28,242 bases of DNA from an uncultured Thermococci archaeon (lineage in GTDB: Archaea > Methanobacteriota_B > Thermococci > Thermococcales > Thermococcaceae): positions 1 to 28,242 of the forward strand of contig CAZAPD010000084.1 in NCBI GenBank assembly GCA_964487115.1. Direction: 5' to 3'. A program made the position numbers and the translations under genes. Shown here piece by piece: positions 16,080-25,180 of the stretch. The first letter of the stretch is position 1. Each line of letters starts with the position of its first letter. Below the pieces are notes generated by a model, which saw only the letters and a program-made list of their open reading frames with translations, did no database searches and was not told where the DNA came from.

Positions 16080-17534
16080 ATGATTTCCGAAAAAGAGACT
16101 GATGTTCTGATAGTTGGAGCAGGTCCAGCAGGTTTATTCGCCGCTTATGAGCTTGCCGAAAAAAGCAATTTCAGGATTCTGGTTGTTGATGAAGGGGGGG
16201 ATATAGAGCAGCGCGTTTGTCCGATGTACGAGCTTGGCTACTGTGTTGCCTGTAAACCGTGCCACATCATGAGTGGTATCGGTGGGGCGGGAGGCCTCAG
16301 CGATGGAACAATAAACCTCCGTCCGGACATAGGTGGCAATTTAGCAGATTTAACTCACGATGAGAACTATTCTTGGCAGCTCGTCTGGGAGGTTGACCGG
16401 ATTTTTCTCAAACATGGTGCCCCGAAGAACCTTTTCAAAGGGAATCCCGAGCAGATAAGGGATTGGGAAAGAAAGGCAGCTCAGGCGGGAGTGAAATTTA
16501 TCCCCATAATTCAGAGACATATAGGCTCAGATCACACCCCTGAAGTTATAGGGAGCATAAAACAACATCTGGAAGGTAGAGGTGTTAAATTCCTCCTCTG
16601 GACAAAGGTTCTGGAATTCAGGCAGGGGGAGGCAGTGGTGAAGAGAGGAAAAGATGTTTTTACAGTCAAAGCAAAGTACATTATCGTTGCTCCGGGGAGA
16701 GGAGGAGCCGACTGGTTCCATGATGTAGCTCAAAAGATAGGATTAAAAGCCAGACACGGACCGATTGATGTAGGTGTAAGGGTTGAGGTGCCTGCAATAG
16801 TTATGGAGCCCATAACGAGCATAAATCACGACCCTAAGTTTCACATTTATACCGACACCTATGACGACTTTGTTAGGACATTTTGCACCAACCCGAACGG
16901 TTTTGTTGTTGAGGAGCGCTATGACGGTTATGTTGGAGTTAATGGCCACTCTATGAGGGACAGAAAGAGCAACAATACAAACTTCGCATTTTTAAGCAGA
17001 ATAGAGTTAACAGAGCCTGTTGAGGATACAACAGCTTATGGAAAGAGCATAGCACAGCTCTCAACGACAATAGGTGGAGGAAAACCTCTTCTTCAGAGGC
17101 TCGGAGACCTTAGAAGAGGAAGGAGGAGCACGTGGACAAGGATAAGGAGGAGCGACGTAGAGCCAACGCTGAAACACGTCACCCCCGGGGATATAGCAAT
17201 GGCTCTTCCCCACAGAATCGTCACAAACATCATGGAAGGTCTTGAGAAGCTCGACCGGGTGATTCCCGGAGTTGCAAGCGATCATACTCTACTCTATGCT
17301 CCGGAGATAAAATACTATGCCATGCGTGCGGAGGTGGATGAGAACCTTGAAACGAATATAGAGGGCATCTTCGCCGCTGGAGATGGTGCAGGCCTTTCGA
17401 GAGACATAGTAAATGCTGCAGCAACGGGAATTTTAGCAGCAAGAGGAATACTCAAGAAGGAAGGTCTCTTCACGGAGAAGGAATTCAGGAAACCGGGAAA
17501 CTGGAGGCATGTTATAGAATCCATGGAAGAGTAA
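16080..17534 (+). CDS. NAD(P)/FAD-dependent oxidoreductase (COG2509-like) with N-terminal Cys cluster
   Basis: IVGAGPAG Rossmann motif; CPxxxxxxCxxCxPC; GGAGGLSDG; RTFCTNPNGFV; AAGDGAGLSR. Confidence 0.88.
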   Translation: MISEKETDVLIVGAGPAGLFAAYELAEKSNFRILVVDEGGDIEQRVCPMYELGYCVACKPCHIMSGIGGAGGLSDGTINLRPDIGGNLADLTHDENYSWQLVWEVDRIFLKHGAPKNLFKGNPEQIRDWERKAAQAGVKFIPIIQRHIGSDHTPEVIGSIKQHLEGRGVKFLLWTKVLEFRQGEAVVKRGKDVFTVKAKYIIVAPGRGGADWFHDVAQKIGLKARHGPIDVGVRVEVPAIVMEPITSINHDPKFHIYTDTYDDFVRTFCTNPNGFVVEERYDGYVGVNGHSMRDRKSNNTNFAFLSRIELTEPVEDTTAYGKSIAQLSTTIGGGKPLLQRLGDLRRGRRSTWTRIRRSDVEPTLKHVTPGDIAMALPHRIVTNIMEGLEKLDRVIPGVASDHTLLYAPEIKYYAMRAEVDENLETNIEGIFAAGDGAGLSRDIVNAAATGILAARGILKKEGLFTEKEFRKPGNWRHVIESMEE

Positions 17535-17550: not shown

Positions 17551-18363
17551 TTAAATTACTTTCTCGGGATTTTCTATATAGTATTTTATCCTCCCCAAGA
17601 ATCTTGCGGCTGGTGCTCCATCTATCGCCCTATGATCAAAACTCAAGGACAACATCATCATGTGAGCAGATTCAATTTTTCTGTTCCTTACAAGTGGTTT
17701 TTCAATTATCCTATTGAGGCCAAGAATTGCAACCTGAGGCGGGTTTATTATCGGAGTAAATGAATCAACACCAAACATGCCCAAATTCGTTACAGTAAAA
17801 GTTCCACCAATAAAATCCTTCTCTTTTAGGAGACCCTTTCTTGTCCTCTCAACAATATCCAGATACTCATCAAGGAGCTCTTCAATGCTTTTCTCATCAA
17901 CCTTTCGGATCACTGGAGTTATTAAGCCTAAAGGACTATCAACAGCTACGTTAATATTAATGTCTTCATAAACTGTTATTTTGTCACCCTCTATTGTTGC
18001 ATTAACATCAATGAAATCCCTAATAGCTTTAGCTATGCATTTTAACATAAGTACTGTGTAAGAAGGCTTCTTCCCAAGCTTCTTACTGAGTTCTTTTCTA
18101 ACATCAATAAGCTCATCAACTTCCACTTCCATGTTGAGAGTTACATGAACAGCCTTGCGATAGCTCCCTGAGAGCCTATCCGCAATTACTTTCCTGATTC
18201 CTATTAACTTACTTTCCCGCAAAATCTTTGGATAGAAATGCTCCCTTATGTATCTCTCAAGATCCTCAATAGTGACTTCTCCATCTGGTCCAGAACCTTG
18301 AATTTTCGATAGATCTATATCATACTGCTCAGCAATCATTTCGATCTCTTCGTTATGAACCAT
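17551..18363 (-). CDS. 2-oxoacid/acetoin dehydrogenase E2 acyltransferase lacking a lipoyl domain
   Basis: Subunit-binding-domain-like IDLSKIQGSGPDGEVTIEDL; GGTFTVTNLG, FTPIINPPQVAILG, catalytic SFDHRAIDGA. It has its own GGTGA RBS and no N-terminal lipoyl domain. Confidence 0.92.
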   Translation of the reverse strand: MVHNEEIEMIAEQYDIDLSKIQGSGPDGEVTIEDLERYIREHFYPKILRESKLIGIRKVIADRLSGSYRKAVHVTLNMEVEVDELIDVRKELSKKLGKKPSYTVLMLKCIAKAIRDFIDVNATIEGDKITVYEDININVAVDSPLGLITPVIRKVDEKSIEELLDEYLDIVERTRKGLLKEKDFIGGTFTVTNLGMFGVDSFTPIINPPQVAILGLNRIIEKPLVRNRKIESAHMMMLSLSFDHRAIDGAPAARFLGRIKYYIENPEKVI

Positions 18364-18490
18364 ACTATCACCATTTTTTAGTAACCTATTTGAGATATAA
18401 CTCTTCCCTTTACCATGTTAAATTACGGGAATTCAATATAGACACCTAAAAAATTTAAAATGGGCAAAAAAACAGTTAATGGTGAGGCAA

Positions 18491-18931
18491 ATGAAGGATC
18501 TAAGCTTTGTAGTGATCGGAAAGTCATTCTCCGATACCAAACTGCTTGCAAAAGTTAGAGGTTTTACCGTGATTGTTGATGAACCTTCTGAAATTGGAGG
18601 AAGCGATAAAGGTCCTACTCCCCTGGAGTATCTTCTCATAGCACTTGCTGGATGCCTAAATATAACCTTTCGAAAAATAGCAGCCGAACGAGGCGTAAAT
18701 ATAAGCTCATTAGAATTTGTCATGAAGGGTACCCTTAATCCCAGTAAGTTTCAGGGTATCCCCACAAAAGAAAGAGCAGGTTATAAAGAGATAACAGTCC
18801 TTGTTAAACTTAACTCAGACGCTCCAAAAGAGACACTCATGGAAATCCTCAAAGAAGCTGAAAAAAGATGTCCAGTCAGTGATAATCTAATAATGCCAAC
18901 GCCATTAAAAATTGAAGTTAAGAAACTATAA
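18491..18931 (+). CDS. OsmC/Ohr family protein
   Basis: DEPSEIGGSDKGPTPLEYLLIALAGC and AEKRCPVSDNL, with both conserved Cys. Probable start MKDL at 18491 after GGTGAGG. Confidence 0.92.
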   Translation: MKDLSFVVIGKSFSDTKLLAKVRGFTVIVDEPSEIGGSDKGPTPLEYLLIALAGCLNITFRKIAAERGVNISSLEFVMKGTLNPSKFQGIPTKERAGYKEITVLVKLNSDAPKETLMEILKEAEKRCPVSDNLIMPTPLKIEVKKL

Positions 18932-19058
18932 TGAATTGTTATGTCGCTTATTGCCCAGTATAATTCATAGTAACAAAGGTGGTCATATATTTAGTAAATT
19001 TGTGTAACATTGTACTTAAACAGAAAAATATAAAAGTCCAAATGAGCAATGTGATATC

Positions 19059-19790
19059 ATGAGATATTTACTCTTAGACATATGGCAACCAGATTGTCCA
19101 ATCGTTCATCTCTCCGAAAGAATACACGATTTGAGAATTTATATTATAATGCCCCATGTTCTATCAACTGAAACCCGTGTTTTATTCACCGTCAGAGGAG
19201 AGGATGTTCAAAGGGTCATGGAAACTATTAGAAAAAACAAACATGTAAAATATGCCAAAGCCCTCTGGAAGGATGAACTGGGAGAAGATATCGAAATTGT
19301 ATGTAAAACTACGGATGCAATGGAAAGCTTTCTTCAATCTCATGTCGTTTTTCAACGTTCTCTTTATGCATTTGACGGCTTTGAGAGATGGTTTGTTATT
19401 GTCAAAAATAAAAGAGATGAAAATGAAGTCCTAAACAGACTCAGGGAGAGAAATGAAGTAAAAATTGTGGAAAAAAGGAAGATTAAAGAACAGGATTTCA
19501 GAACGATGATATGGCTTATGGCAAATCCATTAAGCTATCTCCAAATAGCATCTATTCTAACTAATCTCAACCTATCTCAGACTCAGGAAGCCCTGTTAAG
19601 AGAGACTTTACGAGAAGGGTATTATGATTATCCAAGAAGCACAAATCTGGCTAAATTGGCAGAGAGCATTGGAGTCTCAAAGGCAACAGTTGTGAAAAAC
19701 CTCAGAAAGCTTGAAGGTACCAGTATGAGGTTGTTCTTTAACCTTCTAAAAATAAAAGAAGAAAACGAAGCAAAAAACAGAGGGGGCTAA
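19059..19790 (+). CDS. Bacterio-opsin-activator-type (HTH_10) transcriptional regulator
   Basis: C-terminal LSQTQEALL...GYYDYPRSTNLAKLAESIGVSKATVVKNLRKLE; N-terminal WQPDCP similar to this archaeal family. Confidence 0.85.
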   Translation: MRYLLLDIWQPDCPIVHLSERIHDLRIYIIMPHVLSTETRVLFTVRGEDVQRVMETIRKNKHVKYAKALWKDELGEDIEIVCKTTDAMESFLQSHVVFQRSLYAFDGFERWFVIVKNKRDENEVLNRLRERNEVKIVEKRKIKEQDFRTMIWLMANPLSYLQIASILTNLNLSQTQEALLRETLREGYYDYPRSTNLAKLAESIGVSKATVVKNLRKLEGTSMRLFFNLLKIKEENEAKNRGG

Positions 19791-20761
19791 AATAAAGACT
19801 TCACGGCGTTGATTATGTCCTCTGCTTTTGGTACCATGAACTGCTCCAGTGGAGGACTGAAAGGATGTGGGACGTTTTTAGCTCCTACTCTTCGTATCGG
19901 AGCCTCAAGCTGTCCAAACAACTCCTCAGATATAGTTGCAGCAACTTCAGCTCCCCAACCCGCTCTTCTCCAAGTTTCATGGGCGATTACGACACGCCCT
20001 GTCTTTTTTGCTGAGTTGAGCACAGTTTCTTTGTCCCATGGAACAAGGGTTCTGATGTCGACAATTTCAACATCAATTCCTTCTTTGCTTAGGTATTCCG
20101 CAGCTTTTAACGATTCATGTACCATTCTCGATGCTGTTATGATTGTAACGTCACTTCCTTCCCTCTTTACATCAGCCTTACCCAAGGGTATGTAGTATTC
20201 CTCCTCTGGAACTGGTCCTTTTATCTTATAGAGAGATTTATGTTCAAAGAATATTACAGGATCTGGATCCCTTATTGAGGTTTTTATAAGACCTTTAGCA
20301 TCGTAGGGAGTTGAGGGTATGACAACTTTTATCCCCGGAACATGCATAAAGATCGTTTCTATGCTTTGAGAGTGCTGGGCAGCTGCAGATTTTGCAACAC
20401 CATCTGGACCTCTGAGAACTATGGGCAGACTAATCTGTCCCCCTGTCATGTATCTAATTTTCATTATCTGATTTGTTATTGCTGTTATCCCAGTGAAAAT
20501 GAAATCTGCAAAATGGAATTCCACCACAGGCTTCATACCGGCCATTGCTGCACCGAGAGCCGAACCATATATAACTTCTTCTGAAATTGGAGTGTCAAAT
20601 ATCCTATCCCCAACTTTTCCTAACAAACATTTATATGCTCCAAATATTCCCCCCTGTTTTGCTATGTCTTCTCCATAGGTTATGATGCTCTCGTCCTTAA
20701 GCATCTCCTCAAGAACACCTTCACATATTGCCTGGGCGAATGTTATAATCCTCTCTCCCAT
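19787..20761 (-). CDS. 2-oxoacid/acetoin dehydrogenase E1 beta subunit (AcoB/PdhB-like)
   Basis: GEDI..QGGIFG, DTPISE, AAQHSQS, PSTPYDAKGL, FFEHKSLY, DIRTLVP. Confidence 0.93.
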   Translation of the reverse strand: MGERIITFAQAICEGVLEEMLKDESIITYGEDIAKQGGIFGAYKCLLGKVGDRIFDTPISEEVIYGSALGAAMAGMKPVVEFHFADFIFTGITAITNQIMKIRYMTGGQISLPIVLRGPDGVAKSAAAQHSQSIETIFMHVPGIKVVIPSTPYDAKGLIKTSIRDPDPVIFFEHKSLYKIKGPVPEEEYYIPLGKADVKREGSDVTIITASRMVHESLKAAEYLSKEGIDVEIVDIRTLVPWDKETVLNSAKKTGRVVIAHETWRRAGWGAEVAATISEELFGQLEAPIRRVGAKNVPHPFSPPLEQFMVPKAEDIINAVKSLF

Positions 20762-20772
20762 TGTTGCTCACC

Positions 20773-21768
20773 TCAGTAGTCGTAGCCAGAATCATCAACA
20801 AAAAGATCTTTTAGAGCATCTTCCGGTTTAGGGAACTTGCTTTTCCTTGCAAACTCCACGGCTTCTGCAATCATCTGTTCTACTTTCATGTCTATTTCTT
20901 CAATCTCCCTTTCAGTTAAGATGTTATTTTCAAGCAAAAATTTTCTATATCTCCCCAAAGGCTCTCTTTCCCAGAATTTCTTAACCTCTTCTTTTGATCT
21001 GTAAAGCTCTGGGTCTCCAACAAAATGTCCTTTCAGTCTATAGGTCTTTGCCTCTAATAAAAACGGGCCACTTCCACATCTTGCTCTCTCTATTGCCATT
21101 TTCGCCGCTTTATAGACCTCAAGAACATTGTTTCCATCAATTGTCATTCCGGGTATTCCATATGATGCTGACCTAATAGCAACATTCTTAACTGGTATCA
21201 TTTCTTTTGCTGGGGCTGTTGATGCATATTCATTGAATTCTACCACAAATACCACTGGAAGGTTATAAACAGCGGCGAAGTTTAATCCTTCATGAAATGC
21301 TCCTCTGTTTGTTGCTCCATCCCCAAAAAATGAAACAACAACTTGATCTGTCCCTTTGAATTTAATTGCTAATCCTGCTCCAACTGCTATGGGAATTCCC
21401 CCAGCAACTTCCCCATTGGCTCCAAGTACTCCCTTTGAGACATCAGCTATGTGCATTGAACCTCCTTTTCCCTTGCAGTATCCACTCTCCTTTCCATAAA
21501 GTTCTGCCATCATTCGCTTCAAATCTGCGCCCTTTGCTATCATGTGTCCATGTCCTCTATGAGTGCTCGTTATATAATCGTCCTCTCTAAGATTTGCCAT
21601 GACTCCTGTTGCAATGGCCTCTTCTCCCACATACGAATGAATAAATCCGGGTATCTCACCTCTAAGAAAATTCTGTTCTGCGGTTATATCAAACTTCCTT
21701 ATCTTCACCATTGTTTCATACATCCAAATCAGTTTCTCTTTTGGTATATCCTCCCATCTAACCCTCAT
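20773..21768 (-). CDS. 2-oxoacid/acetoin dehydrogenase E1 alpha subunit (TPP-dependent, AcoA-like)
   Basis: PGFIHSYVGEEA, STHRGHGH, GKGGSMH, GDGATNRGAFHE TPP motif, YRLKGHFVGDP. Confidence 0.93.
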   Translation of the reverse strand: MRVRWEDIPKEKLIWMYETMVKIRKFDITAEQNFLRGEIPGFIHSYVGEEAIATGVMANLREDDYITSTHRGHGHMIAKGADLKRMMAELYGKESGYCKGKGGSMHIADVSKGVLGANGEVAGGIPIAVGAGLAIKFKGTDQVVVSFFGDGATNRGAFHEGLNFAAVYNLPVVFVVEFNEYASTAPAKEMIPVKNVAIRSASYGIPGMTIDGNNVLEVYKAAKMAIERARCGSGPFLLEAKTYRLKGHFVGDPELYRSKEEVKKFWEREPLGRYRKFLLENNILTEREIEEIDMKVEQMIAEAVEFARKSKFPKPEDALKDLFVDDSGYDY

Positions 21769-21780
21769 CCAAACACCTCC

Positions 21781-23070
21781 CTAATATAAATTGGCATGTT
21801 TAGGCAGCCAGAGAGAAAGCTGTGGGAACAACATCGCGATTATTAATGCTAATATGGCGGCAAGTATCAATGGAAAGGCTTCTCTGGCTATATCTTCTAA
21901 GCGCACTTTGGCTATATTTGCCGCAACGTATGCATTTACAGCAACGGGAGGAGTTACTTGGCCTATTGCAAGGTTTATTGTTATGACAACTCCAAACCAT
22001 AAAGGATCCCACTTAAAATGCTGCATTATTGGCATGAAGATTGGAAGAAAAACATAGTATATTGAGATTGCATCTAAAAACATTCCTGCAATAAGTAACA
22101 TTATGTTAATCAGGAACAGTATTACTATTGGATTACTTGAGAAACCAGTTATTGCAGCTACCGCATGGTTTATCAGACCTGCAGTTTCCTCAACCCATGA
22201 AAATAAAGTTGCAAAGGTAACAACAAACATAACTACAGCTGAAGTCTCTGCCGAATCTCTTAAAATTTTAATAAACTTCTTGAAGGTTATGGTCCTGTAG
22301 ATGACGGCTCCTATGAACCAGGAATAAACAACCGCAACAACTGCAGCCTCTGTTGGAGTAAATACTCCTCCATAAATACCTCCCAGTATTATCAATGGAG
22401 CCAAAAGACCAAGGAAGGAGTCTTTAAATGCCTCAATAATTTCTCCCATACTCCTTTTTTCAACACCTCCTCTCCAATTTCTTTTTCTCGATACTAAGTA
22501 GGTTGTTATTATCAAGAGGGAACTTGTGATCAATCCCGGGATTATACCCGCAATAAAGAGGGCTCCGATAGAAACGCTTGTTATTACGCCATAAATGATA
22601 AAAGCTATACTGGGAGGTATTATTATCGCCAAGCCAGATGCCGTTGATATAACACCTGCCGAAAACCCCTTAGAATAGCCACTTGCTATCAATGCTGGAA
22701 TCAGGATAACTCCCAATGCCGCTGTAGTCGCTGGCCCCGAACCAGAAACTGCTCCCCAAAATGTCGCTACTATTACTCCAACTATCGCAAGGCCTCCGTA
22801 AATGTTTCCTATTAGAAGTTTTGCCAATTTTATTATCCTCTCTGCTATGCCAGATTCCTGCATAGTTATACCGGCAGTTACAAAGAAGGGAATTGCGAGT
22901 AGAGGAAACTTTGCTATGGCTGAGTATATGTTTGGTCCGACAACTTCAATTCCATAGGCATAGTGCCAGATCGCAAATATCGAGACTATACCAAGGGATG
23001 TTCCTATCGGAACACCCACCAAAAGAAGAACTCCAAAGAGGAGGAGTATAAGGATTGATGGGTCAAGCAT
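21781..23070 (-). CDS. TRAP transporter large permease (DctM)
   Basis: LLAIPFF, GAVSGSGPA, IIPPSI, GVFTPTEAA, IGQVTPPV. Confidence 0.93.
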   Translation of the reverse strand: MLDPSILILLLFGVLLLVGVPIGTSLGIVSIFAIWHYAYGIEVVGPNIYSAIAKFPLLAIPFFVTAGITMQESGIAERIIKLAKLLIGNIYGGLAIVGVIVATFWGAVSGSGPATTAALGVILIPALIASGYSKGFSAGVISTASGLAIIIPPSIAFIIYGVITSVSIGALFIAGIIPGLITSSLLIITTYLVSRKRNWRGGVEKRSMGEIIEAFKDSFLGLLAPLIILGGIYGGVFTPTEAAVVAVVYSWFIGAVIYRTITFKKFIKILRDSAETSAVVMFVVTFATLFSWVEETAGLINHAVAAITGFSSNPIVILFLINIMLLIAGMFLDAISIYYVFLPIFMPIMQHFKWDPLWFGVVITINLAIGQVTPPVAVNAYVAANIAKVRLEDIAREAFPLILAAILALIIAMLFPQLSLWLPKHANLY

Positions 23071-23518
23071 TTTTCATAACCTCCCTCATGCTCTGTATTA
23101 TCCTAAAAACTACCAGAACAGATATTATCGGCATTCCAATTGTATATATCCACATTGGAATTCCTAATGCCATTGTCGTCGAATGATAAACTGTCATGTC
23201 AAGGTAGACATATTGAGCCGTGAGATAGAGAACCACAATAAAAAGGATTAAGCTAAGTATCTGTCCAAATATTATGAGATGCTTTCTTACAGGTAACCTA
23301 TCCCTTACAAAGACCATCGCTAAATGAGAGCCTTTTTTAAATGCCATAGCTATCCCCAGAAACGTTACCCACACAAAAAATGCTACTTCAATTTCTTCTG
23401 TAAACGCTATAGAAGCCCGAAAAAGATATCTTGTAACAACATTTATAAACGCCACAAGAATCATGATCAGAAGAAGGACAGCTGCAACATATCCCTCTGG
23501 TTCAATTTTCTCTTCCAA
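23063..23518 (-). CDS. TRAP transporter small permease (DctQ)
   Basis: NVVTRY, FTEEI, WVTFLG, GSHLAM; four hydrophobic helices. Probable TTG start at 23518 after GGAGGTG (the ORF track uses 23527). Confidence 0.9.
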   Translation of the reverse strand: MEEKIEPEGYVAAVLLLIMILVAFINVVTRYLFRASIAFTEEIEVAFFVWVTFLGIAMAFKKGSHLAMVFVRDRLPVRKHLIIFGQILSLILFIVVLYLTAQYVYLDMTVYHSTTMALGIPMWIYTIGMPIISVLVVFRIIQSMREVMKNA

Positions 23519-23546
23519 ATTAGGCACCTCCTTCAGATTTGGATTT

Positions 23547-23563
23547 GAAAGAAAAATAAAAAG
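23547..23563 (-). terminator. Oligo(T) tract between dctP and dctQ, possible partial terminator
   Basis: Minus strand reads CTTTTTATTTTTCTTTC just after the dctP stop; archaeal terminators are U-tracts. Confidence 0.35.
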
Positions 23564-23569
23564 ATAGGG

Positions 23570-24757
23570 TCATGAAGGAATTTCTACTTTTATTCCAAGA
23601 GCATTTTCAATGTCTGAAACTGCATCTTCCACTAATCCTTTCCCTATCTTCGGTACCCATGTCTTGTAAACACCGCCGACCTTAGCCTTGAATTCTGCTC
23701 TTTGACTTGGAGATAAAGTCGTTATTTCCATGCCCTTACTCTCTAAGAAGCTGATGGGATCTGTTATTTTGGGGGTGTAATTGTATTCTTCTTTTAGTAT
23801 CTTCAAAGAGGTACCGTCATCAAGACCTACACGTGCCATAGCTTTTTCCCATTTAGCTGCTTTTATAGCGGCTTCCTTTATTATCTGTTGAGTTTGTGGG
23901 TCAAAAGACTCCCACGTCTTTTTATTTACGGCGAATATTAGTGGATCGATTGCATAGTCCCATATAGTCATATACTTGTGGAACTGATAAATCTTGTATG
24001 GGATTATAACGATATTTATCGGGTTTTCTTGTCCATCAACTACTTTCTGCTGGAATGCTGTAATAGCATCCCCCCAGTTCATCATTGTTGGGTCAGCACC
24101 AAGTGCCTTGAATGTATCAACAAAGATGGGTGAACCTACTACTCTAATTTTCAATCCTTTGAGATCATCTGGGGTTTTAATTGGATGTTTCCAATTAGTG
24201 ATTTGTCTAAATCCGTTTTCGCCCCATGCTAATGGAATTACGCCTTTGCTTTCCAATATTTGTGCAATCCTTTTACCCGCTTTTCCATTTTCTACAGCAT
24301 CAACTGCTTTGTATATATCCCCCTTCTTCTTCCCTTCAGGGAAGAAAAATGGCAATATAAACAAGTTCAGCTCTTTAACCTGAGGTGCCCAGTTTATAGT
24401 TGAACCAACTGCAAAATCCGCAACTCCCTGACTAAGAAGAACAAACTCATTTGTTTGTTTTCCTGCAAAAAGCTGTCCAGAGAAATATATCTGAATCTTT
24501 ATCCTGCCATGTGTCTTTTTCTCTATCTCATCTGCCCACATCTTTGCAGCCTGTCCCCAAGGAGAATTGGGCCCAACAACAACGCTCATTTTGTATACCT
24601 TGGTTGGGGCAGAAGATGCTGAAGAGGATGTCGAGGTAGATGCTGATGCTGTAGAGGTTGCAGAGGTTGTAGATGTAGTGCTCTTTCCTATACATCCGGC
24701 CCCAATCACGCCAAAAATCAAAATTCCCAACAACAATATAGTTCCAAGTTTTCTCAT
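23570..24757 (-). CDS. TRAP transporter substrate-binding protein (DctP family), lipoprotein-type N-terminus
   Basis: Signal peptide ending GAGCIG, Ser/Thr linker, WGENGFRQIT, DLKGLKIRV (carboxylate-binding Arg), VDGQENP. Confidence 0.92.
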   Translation of the reverse strand: MRKLGTILLLGILIFGVIGAGCIGKSTTSTTSATSTASASTSTSSSASSAPTKVYKMSVVVGPNSPWGQAAKMWADEIEKKTHGRIKIQIYFSGQLFAGKQTNEFVLLSQGVADFAVGSTINWAPQVKELNLFILPFFFPEGKKKGDIYKAVDAVENGKAGKRIAQILESKGVIPLAWGENGFRQITNWKHPIKTPDDLKGLKIRVVGSPIFVDTFKALGADPTMMNWGDAITAFQQKVVDGQENPINIVIIPYKIYQFHKYMTIWDYAIDPLIFAVNKKTWESFDPQTQQIIKEAAIKAAKWEKAMARVGLDDGTSLKILKEEYNYTPKITDPISFLESKGMEITTLSPSQRAEFKAKVGGVYKTWVPKIGKGLVEDAVSDIENALGIKVEIPS

Positions 24758-24759
24758 CT

Positions 24760-25002
24760 TCAGACCTCCGTTTCTATCAACGCTATCGGTTCCCCAATAG
24801 GAACCTCATCCCCCTCCTCATGTATTATCTTAACAAGAATACCATCGGCCGGAGATTCAACCTCCCCAGTAAGTTTTTCACTTTCTATCTCTGCGATTGT
24901 TTCACCTTTTTTGACAAGGTCCCCTTCTTTCTTTATCCACTTGATTATAGTGCCACTTTCCATAGTTAGTCCCAATTTCGGCATTACGATTTCTACTTTC
25001 AC
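24760..25002 (-). CDS. Stand-alone lipoyl-domain protein (AcoC-like lipoyl domain)
   Basis: VMPKLGLTMESGTIIKW.KKEGD.V..GE.IAEIESEKLT.EVESPADG has the lipoyl-Lys in ESEK. Probable GTG start at 25002; the stop lies 2 bp before the dctP ATG. Confidence 0.9.
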   Translation of the reverse strand: MKVEIVMPKLGLTMESGTIIKWIKKEGDLVKKGETIAEIESEKLTGEVESPADGILVKIIHEEGDEVPIGEPIALIETEV

Positions 25003-25180
25003 GGATATCCCCAATATCTTATAAAACTTGCAAAATCTAAAAGTTTTGAGTGAACATATTAAACACCTGATTTATCTAAAGTAGGTGTATGCATAGAATA
25101 CATCCCACTGGGACTAATGAACAACTTTTAAAGCTGAGTAATTGTACTAATGCTCAAAAATCAACAGAGGGGAGAATACT

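Follow-up and report, generated by a model that had tools for sequence, protein, structure and literature searches.

A thermococcal island lacking E3 joins a mobile TRAP-E1 module to E2 core and osmC genes of AcoX-type clusters

We have analyzed a stretch of 28,242 nucleotides from an uncultured Thermococci archaeon of the family Thermococcaceae (assembly GCA_964487115.1, contig CAZAPD010000084.1), which we call the window; the genome it belongs to (G000 in our set) is 96.5% complete and split into 132 contigs. The window harbors an island of nine genes that encode both E1 subunits of an acetoin/2-oxoacid dehydrogenase, a stand-alone lipoyl domain, an E2 core, a tripartite ATP-independent periplasmic (TRAP) importer, an OsmC-like protein and a regulator, without a dihydrolipoamide dehydrogenase (E3). 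Judged from sequence comparison, the island is a mosaic. It combines a mobile TRAP-E1 module (regulator, E1alpha and E1beta, lone lipoyl domain and importer) with an E2 core gene and an osmC gene derived from the AcoX-type clusters of the family. The island might import its substrate, cleave it with thiamine diphosphate (ThDP) chemistry, pass an acetyl group from the lipoyl domain to coenzyme A (CoA) and reoxidize the carrier independently of NAD, with OsmC as one acceptor. We put forward this whole scheme tentatively, at slightly less than an even chance.

The mosaic origin is apparent because the module is shared as a unit without the E2 core and osmC genes, while these two genes nest in AcoX clusters. 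Positions 19011-25083 (regulator, E1, TRAP and lipoyl domain) are common to the related genomes G085 and G097 with 83-84% DNA identity, and the module is present in part also in G049, G087, G055 and G066. DNA homology with G085 and G097 begins at a conserved A-rich TATA-like box of the regulator (19011..19058, plus strand) that forms the left edge of the module. The regulator itself, an HTH_10 (Bat-like) protein (19059..19790, plus strand; PF04967) convergent with E1beta, has the identical position in G097, G085, G087 and G049 and thus belongs to the module. The lipoyl domain gene opens the module also in G097, G085, G087, G049 and G066, and the operon promoter region before it (25003..25083, minus strand) contains a conserved TGTTTAA-A-T-TT block, with columns invariant in six of six aligned copies, that is a putative promoter or operator. 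Past the E1beta/regulator end other genes follow in G085, G087, G049 and G055; G097, G066 and two metagenome contigs stop before this end and are unusable for adjacency. Among the five resolvable archaeal copies, osmC and the E2 core stand beside the module in the window only (four loci duplicating already counted contigs were entered once in the module counts). The module recurs in other Thermococcaceae, on Thermus thermophilus plasmids and in anaerobic bacteria. The E2 core (17551..18363, minus strand; 270 amino acids, PF02817 and PF00198, DHRxxDG motif intact, no lipoyl domain) lies 6.4 kb from the lipoyl domain gene. In the tree it groups with the E2 proteins of the AcoX clusters of G033, G036, G045 and G066 (81% to that of G036) and apart from the fused E2s of bacterial TRAP clusters, and the OsmC of the window likewise nests among the OsmCs of AcoX clusters.

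The block is a low-GC insertion between conserved flank genes, since its GC content of 0.395 is below the 0.459 and 0.449 of the flanks (0.29-0.39 against 0.47-0.53 at third codon positions) and since the flank genes are neighbors in relatives. The genes for an FAD protein and for ttuA are only 45 bp apart in G028 and adjacent by coordinates also in G043, G041, G030, G029 and G026. This FAD protein (16080-17534, 484 amino acids), a conserved flank normally found next to ttuA, has an N-terminal Cys cluster and is not an E3. A single contig from run X2, which stems from a different study than run X1, the possible source, covers 17768-18912 and so joins the E2 core to osmC. Both covering runs (X1 and X2) have G instead of A at position 18358, a synonymous difference in the E2 core gene. 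The divergent intergenic region of the two genes (18364..18490, no strand) contains, as read from the sequence, AT-rich TATA-like boxes and ribosome-binding sites for both, and the boxes are their predicted promoters.

The genome encodes a second E3-less cluster (G000:C62:7307-15917, L057) that is larger than the gene set of the island. It comprises two further pairs of E1 genes along with two lipoyl domains, an E2 core (73% to that of the island), an OsmC (57%), DUF6506, a Lin0512-family gene, a lipoate ligase and an NAD-kinase-fold gene that we take to be AcoX-like. The island is not the sole source of E1, E2, lipoyl and OsmC parts in this genome. The first-pass annotation, made from the sequence of the window, had proposed a self-contained pathway; this is doubtful, because OsmC needs an oxidant of its own and because identical kinds of parts are available in trans from the paralogous cluster. 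One E1alpha type of the C62 cluster has an unusual GELHLS motif and its own long-branched clade, and is found also in metagenome locus L109.

Other parts of that annotation stand. Its gene layout, a minus-strand operon, plus-strand osmC and HTH genes and a separate minus-strand E2 core, was confirmed for all nine genes, which are intact where it had placed them as judged from an open reading frame (ORF) check and family profile matches. It was also right that the window encodes no E3: the flanking FAD protein scores 38 bits on TIGR01350 (cut-off 408.8). In a genome-wide profile search the top score was 141 against 408.8 bits, so that the genome has no canonical E3 either, and its two PF02852 matches are a CoA-disulfide reductase (CoADR) and a CoADR/NADH-oxidase-like protein. 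The cut-off is reached in none of 99 Thermococcales genomes, and Haloferax volcanii, the control genome, does match the E3 family in the same search. Near misses were inspected as far as they were fetched, that is five top PF02852 and five mid-scoring matches from relatives. The five PF02852 proteins, out of 14, are MerA-like and all end in a Cys-Cys pair (one is a MerA above the cut-off), and four of the five mid-scoring ones are glutathione-reductase-like and devoid of the E3 His motif; these were rejected as E3. In G082, G078, G087 and G004 (L153-L156) the ribosomal-protein gene region carries an insertion that consists of a gene for a glutathione-reductase-like flavoprotein and a small partner gene. 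Since G001, a genome of another family without an E1 match, carries an E3-like gene just below the cut-off that is probably a true E3, we state the absence of canonical E3 for the Thermococcaceae and not for the whole order.

The lack of E3 is no special design of the island. GcvH is present in 98 of the 99 genomes and E3 above the cut-off in none, and hence E3-free lipoate recycling is a family-wide problem that includes glycine cleavage. The genome of the window encodes GcvP, the lipoylation proteins LipS1, LipS2 and the LplA large subunit (above cut-off), and lipoate ligases. It also encodes alternative thiol-redox proteins, namely a protein disulfide oxidoreductase (PDO), CoADR, an AhpD-domain protein and a thioredoxin-reductase-like ORF.

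The E1 proteins of the island belong to a distinct clade that, by sequence and gene context, is tied to carboxylate transporters. E1alpha (20773..21768, minus strand; PF00676) is of the acetoin-dehydrogenase/pyruvate-dehydrogenase-like superfamily (TIGR03182 362.6, cut-off 393.85), and E1beta (19787..20761, minus strand) has the motifs HFADF and PDG...AAAQHS of the transporter-linked clade. The ThDP-binding motif GDG...N of E1alpha and the catalytic His of E1beta (AQHS) are both present. Relatives of E1alpha at E 1e-30 occur in 24 of the 99 Thermococcales genomes, mostly in AcoX-type layout, which in Thermococcaceae keeps the lipoyl domain and the E2 core in ORFs of their own. A quick tree of 120 rows (129 sequences collected, nine near-duplicates removed) places the E1alpha of the window outside the AcoX-linked clades, in a 19-row clade (SH-aLRT 99) inside a 28-row clade (97). 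All 28 members have a partner E1beta with the signature H-F/Y-A/V-D-F ... PDG, and the His motif is found in none of 86 others (six rows had no partner E1beta). A Lys in an E1beta loop was dropped as carboxylate binder, as the residue varies (K/R/Q/N/S) across the clade, and an Azospirillum E1-TRAP locus without the clade motifs was excluded from the counts. The PDB matches of the E1 proteins include no solved AcoAB structure.

Among 27 metagenome loci of the clade, TRAP genes lie beside E1 in 19 and an E3-like gene in nine, while OsmC was found in none; many of these contigs are short, and the OsmC profile used could miss distant members. At least four further loci pair E1 with an anion-symporter of the major facilitator superfamily and a gene that best matches 2-hydroxy-3-oxopropionate reductase (below cut-off). 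DctP (56-57%) and E1beta (54%) are also encoded on eight Thermus thermophilus plasmids. The two plasmid loci examined have the order regulator, E1alpha, E1beta, lone lipoyl domain and dctPQM and carry no annotated gene for an E2 core, E3 or OsmC. Because an E2 core is not annotated there, the lone lipoyl domain (24760..25002 in the window, minus strand; about 80 amino acids, PF00364, Lys in ESEKL) looks like an adaptor that plugs the E1 of the clade into the E2 of the host. Aldehyde:ferredoxin oxidoreductase-like genes lie beside E1 clusters in metagenome loci L094, L100 and L133, which would fit an aldehyde product of acyloin cleavage. Over homologous neighborhoods, osmC is usually absent, contrary to what the first-pass annotation had expected, but lpd is absent in most as well, as it had expected.

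The importer is intact, with dctM (21781..23070; TIGR00786 above cut-off), dctQ (23063..23527; PF04290) and dctP (23570..24757; TIGR00787 above cut-off) all on the minus strand, and is of the carboxylate type, in agreement with the earlier proposal of an imported carboxylate. The closest solved relative of DctP, compared by whole-sequence similarity, is 4P8B with 314.5 bits (E 1.1e-92), and the next PDB match has 145.9 bits. 4P8B is the TRAP binding protein H16_A1328 of Cupriavidus necator with (S)-2-acetolactate (PMC10443332, supplement), a putative physiological ligand; 2-acetolactate is among the TRAP ligands found by Vetting et al. (PMC5812351). The DctP of bacterial locus L081 likewise best matches 4P8B, and in L078 the genes ilvB-ilvN-ilvC are divergently adjacent to an E1 locus of the clade. 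Because 4P8B is the closest solved DctP by a wide margin, acetolactate or a near analogue is the candidate for the imported substrate, with a chance that we rate just below even. The ilv genes of L078 and, in sister loci, the symporter and reductase-like genes agree with such a substrate. Together with the transporter-linked E1 clade, the DctP match points to an as yet uncharacterized enzyme that would cleave acetolactate-type (2-hydroxy-3-oxo) acids. No ilvB, ilvC, ilvN or ilvD match was found in the genome of the window, nor ilvC above cut-off in five relatives carrying the module, and therefore the use of acetolactate would be catabolic. The literature searched, outside of which most subscription papers lie, contains no description of acetolactate catabolism with a TRAP transporter and acetoin dehydrogenase, and no main-text account of 4P8B.

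Several observations speak against this assignment. A distant DctP, 4OAN (E 6.6e-31 to the DctP of the window), also bound acetolactate (PMC10443332, supplement), and thus the ligand in 4P8B may have been picked up by chance from the expression host. Loci L068 and L070 have DctPs of 49% identity but no E1 gene in the surrounding 10 kb, and the DctP of L067, with 81% identity, lies on a 5-kb contig without E1. Acetolactate is moreover heat-labile, which is awkward for a hyperthermophile. The imported acid might instead be decarboxylated first, spontaneously in the heat or by a PPC/DUF296 protein, so that E1 cleaves acetoin, or E1 might decarboxylate a plain 2-oxo acid. PF03479 genes are indeed found directly before E1 of the clade in the bacteria-like contigs L079 (3994-4416) and L082 (3181-3672) and beside a Thermococcaceae AcoX cluster (L028:5946-6365), and a Thermus record labels E1alpha as acoA by automatic annotation. 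However, the island has no PF03479 gene, the single copy of the genome lies on another contig, AcoX-linked E1 pairs are already available there, and the clade-specific E1beta motifs suggest a different substrate. We consider decarboxylation first, or a plain 2-oxo acid, rather unlikely. This alternative is independent of the OsmC question, and the likelihoods that we assign to the various alternatives need not add up to certainty.

In the scheme that we favor, TRAP would import a small 2-hydroxy-3-oxo acid, with (S)-2-acetolactate or a closely similar acid as the likeliest candidate. Acetolactate is an acyloin and hence should be splittable by an E1 of the acetoin dehydrogenase type. By analogy to the chemistry of the family, the ThDP-dependent E1 would split the ketol bond as in acetoin dehydrogenase, release the 2-oxo acid half (pyruvate in the case of acetolactate) and retain a ThDP-bound two-carbon unit that reductively acetylates the free lipoyl domain. 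The E2 core would then transfer the acetyl group to CoA. As the family lacks E3, the dihydrolipoyl arm would be reoxidized by thiol-disulfide exchange instead of NAD+. The OsmC-like protein might be one dedicated acceptor, passing electrons on to peroxide or to a sulfur or disulfide oxidant, and would be an optional helper rather than a defining part. The origin of the E2 core and OsmC lends support to this scheme, because these two would unload and reoxidize the carrier. Against it stands the E3-like gene in nine of the 27 metagenome loci, for which reason the E1 of this clade is seen, by gene context, as normally working with E3.

The OsmC-like gene (18491..18931, plus strand; PF02566) has an alternative ATG at 18479, from which its Cys59 and Cys131 are numbered, and 18491 is the probable start codon. 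The protein scores 94.3 on NF041052 (cut-off 95). Its predicted structure (pLDDT 84) best matches Ta0195, 1LQL, 2PN2 and AQ1549 with Z 14-15.5 (Ta0195: Z 15.5, rmsd 2.2 A over 138 residues), and matches to true Ohr proteins score only 2-3 Z units lower. Both Cys residues are invariant in ten of ten aligned homologues. Measured against the reference positions that we assume for the catalytic Arg and Glu, a near-invariant Glu precedes the first Cys by nine instead of ten residues, and an Arg that is likewise nearly invariant lies in a later loop. The model ranks the protein with the Ohr-like group, which in PMC5384416 is described as lacking the catalytic Arg/Glu, with one member inactive as peroxidase. 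The same source states that lipoylated proteins are reductants of Ohr/OsmC. In a tree of 38 OsmCs, which leaves out a broken copy of G087 and a copy of G076, all ten E1-linked OsmCs form one clade (99/97). The cluster osmC is intact in nine of the 24 E1 genomes, broken in one (G087), missing in ten and cut by contig ends in four. A close OsmC homologue (E 1e-20 or better) is present in 22 of the 24 E1-positive and 30 of the 75 E1-negative genomes, with the caveat that kin are not independent, and the two E1-positive exceptions are only 73% and 85% complete. Wherever a cluster without osmC could be checked, the genome has a close homologue at another place, and six of the nine genomes with an intact cluster osmC have no second close copy. 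This distribution agrees with OsmC being required either in cis or in trans. We regard OsmC as a plausible oxidant, one among others, of the dihydrolipoyl carrier, at even chances.

The early proposal that OsmC reoxidizes the carrier is thus backed by the common clade and the published reduction of Ohr/OsmC by lipoylated proteins, but osmC is missing from the cluster in ten of the 24 E1 genomes and broken in one, and further points weaken it. The modeled fold places the protein in a group with a peroxidase-inactive member (PMC5384416). The other 28 OsmCs in the tree lie alone or next to aldehyde:ferredoxin oxidoreductase. Genera with osmC-less clusters all have a resident OsmC irrespective of E1, the distribution may go back to just one or two transfers, and the shared clade may reflect a single old co-transfer. 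The TRAP module does not have OsmC as a constant partner: the OsmC profile matched in none of 80 metagenome loci, and the gene is not adjacent in G085, G087, G049 and G055, and absent from both Thermus plasmid loci examined. The combination of OsmC and TRAP, which the first-pass annotation had singled out as the likely novelty, therefore does not hold up as a conserved feature.

OsmC might also be a passenger, with the arm reoxidized by a family-wide route (PDO and thioredoxin reductase, CoADR, an AhpD-like protein or directly by polysulfide) that serves glycine cleavage as well. GcvH without E3 is nearly universal in the 99 genomes, yet 27 of these have no match to the OsmC of the window at E 1e-5; the candidate thiol proteins are all encoded in the genome, and the ten missing and one broken cluster copies fit. 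On the other hand, a distant PF02566 member was present in all five genomes tested among those without a close match, which made us abandon the notion that many genomes lack any OsmC-family protein. Moreover, osmC-less clusters have their close homologue elsewhere, most genomes with a cluster copy have no second one, and the E2 core and osmC are all that the island kept of the donor cluster. A passenger role seems rather unlikely. Still less probable is that OsmC is an obligatory E3 substitute in a self-contained island, be it catabolic or a substrate-fueled peroxide defense, for although the E1-linked clade, the lack of E3 above cut-off in 99 genomes, the reduction of Ohr/OsmC by lipoyl proteins (PMC5384416) and AhpD-domain genes adjoining related TRAP or E1-E2 genes (L067, L132) could be cited in favor, the OsmC-TRAP linkage is not conserved, metagenome loci L090 and L109 have split-E2, E3-less clusters without osmC, and the island encodes no oxidant for OsmC.

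The AhpD-domain genes just mentioned lie directly before the TRAP genes with the 81% identical DctP on a Desulfurococcales contig (L067:800-1153) and, in a metagenome cluster that has no E3 (L132:13062-13397), immediately behind E1-E2, and another thiol protein of this type may occupy the slot of OsmC elsewhere. The majority of the remaining Thermococcaceae proteins of the OsmC subfamily (L049, L051, L162-L173 and others) directly follow a pair of ferredoxin-like and aldehyde:ferredoxin oxidoreductase genes, often with a MoaD-like gene thereafter. No fused OsmC forms were found among the longer proteins searched, which is weak evidence. Three haloarchaeal plasmid OsmCs (40-43%) were discarded as E1 partners, having no E1 or lipoyl neighbors.

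Precedents exist for each step of the proposed scheme, namely for acyloin cleavage, for lipoyl-dependent Ohr/OsmC and for an E1-fueled, Lpd-free peroxidase in Mycobacterium tuberculosis. In acetoin dehydrogenase, AcoABCL, a ThDP-dependent E1 cleaves acetoin and the acetyl group travels over lipoate to CoA. The island shares with AcoABCL of Pelobacter carbinolicus and Bacillus subtilis (cited from the references and table of PMC8305020) the E1alpha/beta pair, the lipoyl relay and the E2 acetyltransferase, and the paralogous C62 cluster has the AcoX-like gene. It differs in that the lipoyl domain is separate from the E2 core, E3 is missing, a carboxylate importer is part of the operon, the E1beta motifs are distinct and the substrate is probably an acid. 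For Haloferax volcanii oadh2 and oadh3 we presume a lone lipoyl domain. Like those of the island, these E1 pairs are archaeal and of the acetoin dehydrogenase type, and the PMC8305020 table assigns no substrate to them, but the Haloferax genome has an E3-family match and that of the window none above the cut-off. In M. tuberculosis, the peroxidase system can run on HoaS or AceE without need of LpdC and NADH (PMC8811941). There, as proposed here, an E1-reduced lipoyl carrier of the AhpC/AhpD/DlaT system is reoxidized by a thiol protein and not by E3 and NAD+. However, that system uses the adaptor AhpD plus AhpC instead of an OsmC-like protein, the organism has Lpd, and there is no dedicated importer. 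AhpD and AhpC are absent from the island, and an AhpD-domain gene lies on contig C90 of the same genome. A two-cysteine OsmC fold beside a lipoyl carrier, as in the island, is also known from Trichomonas (OsmC with H and L proteins) and Hyphomicrobium (GcvH_1-OsmC), as described in PMC5384416 and bioRxiv 10.64898/2026.10.01.755906. In these cases the electrons come from NADH via E3/L, whereas those of the island would come from E1, and the OsmC of the window ranks with the poorly characterized Ohr-like group, unlike the lipoyl-dependent peroxidases. The same body of literature as above describes neither this E1 clade nor its substrate nor E1-OsmC clusters of Thermococcales; for three Thermococcus species, PMC3904984 only counts E2.

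With these data, acetolactate-type acids become a named candidate substrate for a widespread E1 clade. The scheme also offers a candidate answer to lipoate recycling in Thermococcaceae, where GcvH occurs in 98 and E1 clusters in 24 of 99 genomes but E3 above the cut-off in none. A further-reaching, and in our view improbable, reading is that the module is an undescribed acetolactate dehydrogenase yielding pyruvate and acetyl-CoA, in which E1, lipoyl domain and TRAP importer plug into the metabolism of archaea and bacteria alike and which in Thermococcaceae runs E3-free via a dedicated Ohr-like oxidant to sulfur or peroxide. If true, this would also suggest which protein could do the work of the L protein that the family lacks. 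Peroxide as final oxidant would mean stress defense, while polysulfide or disulfide would allow steady catabolism. Should the proposed scheme be true, NAD-independent lipoyl recycling would extend from a mycobacterial stress response to catabolism in anaerobic archaea.

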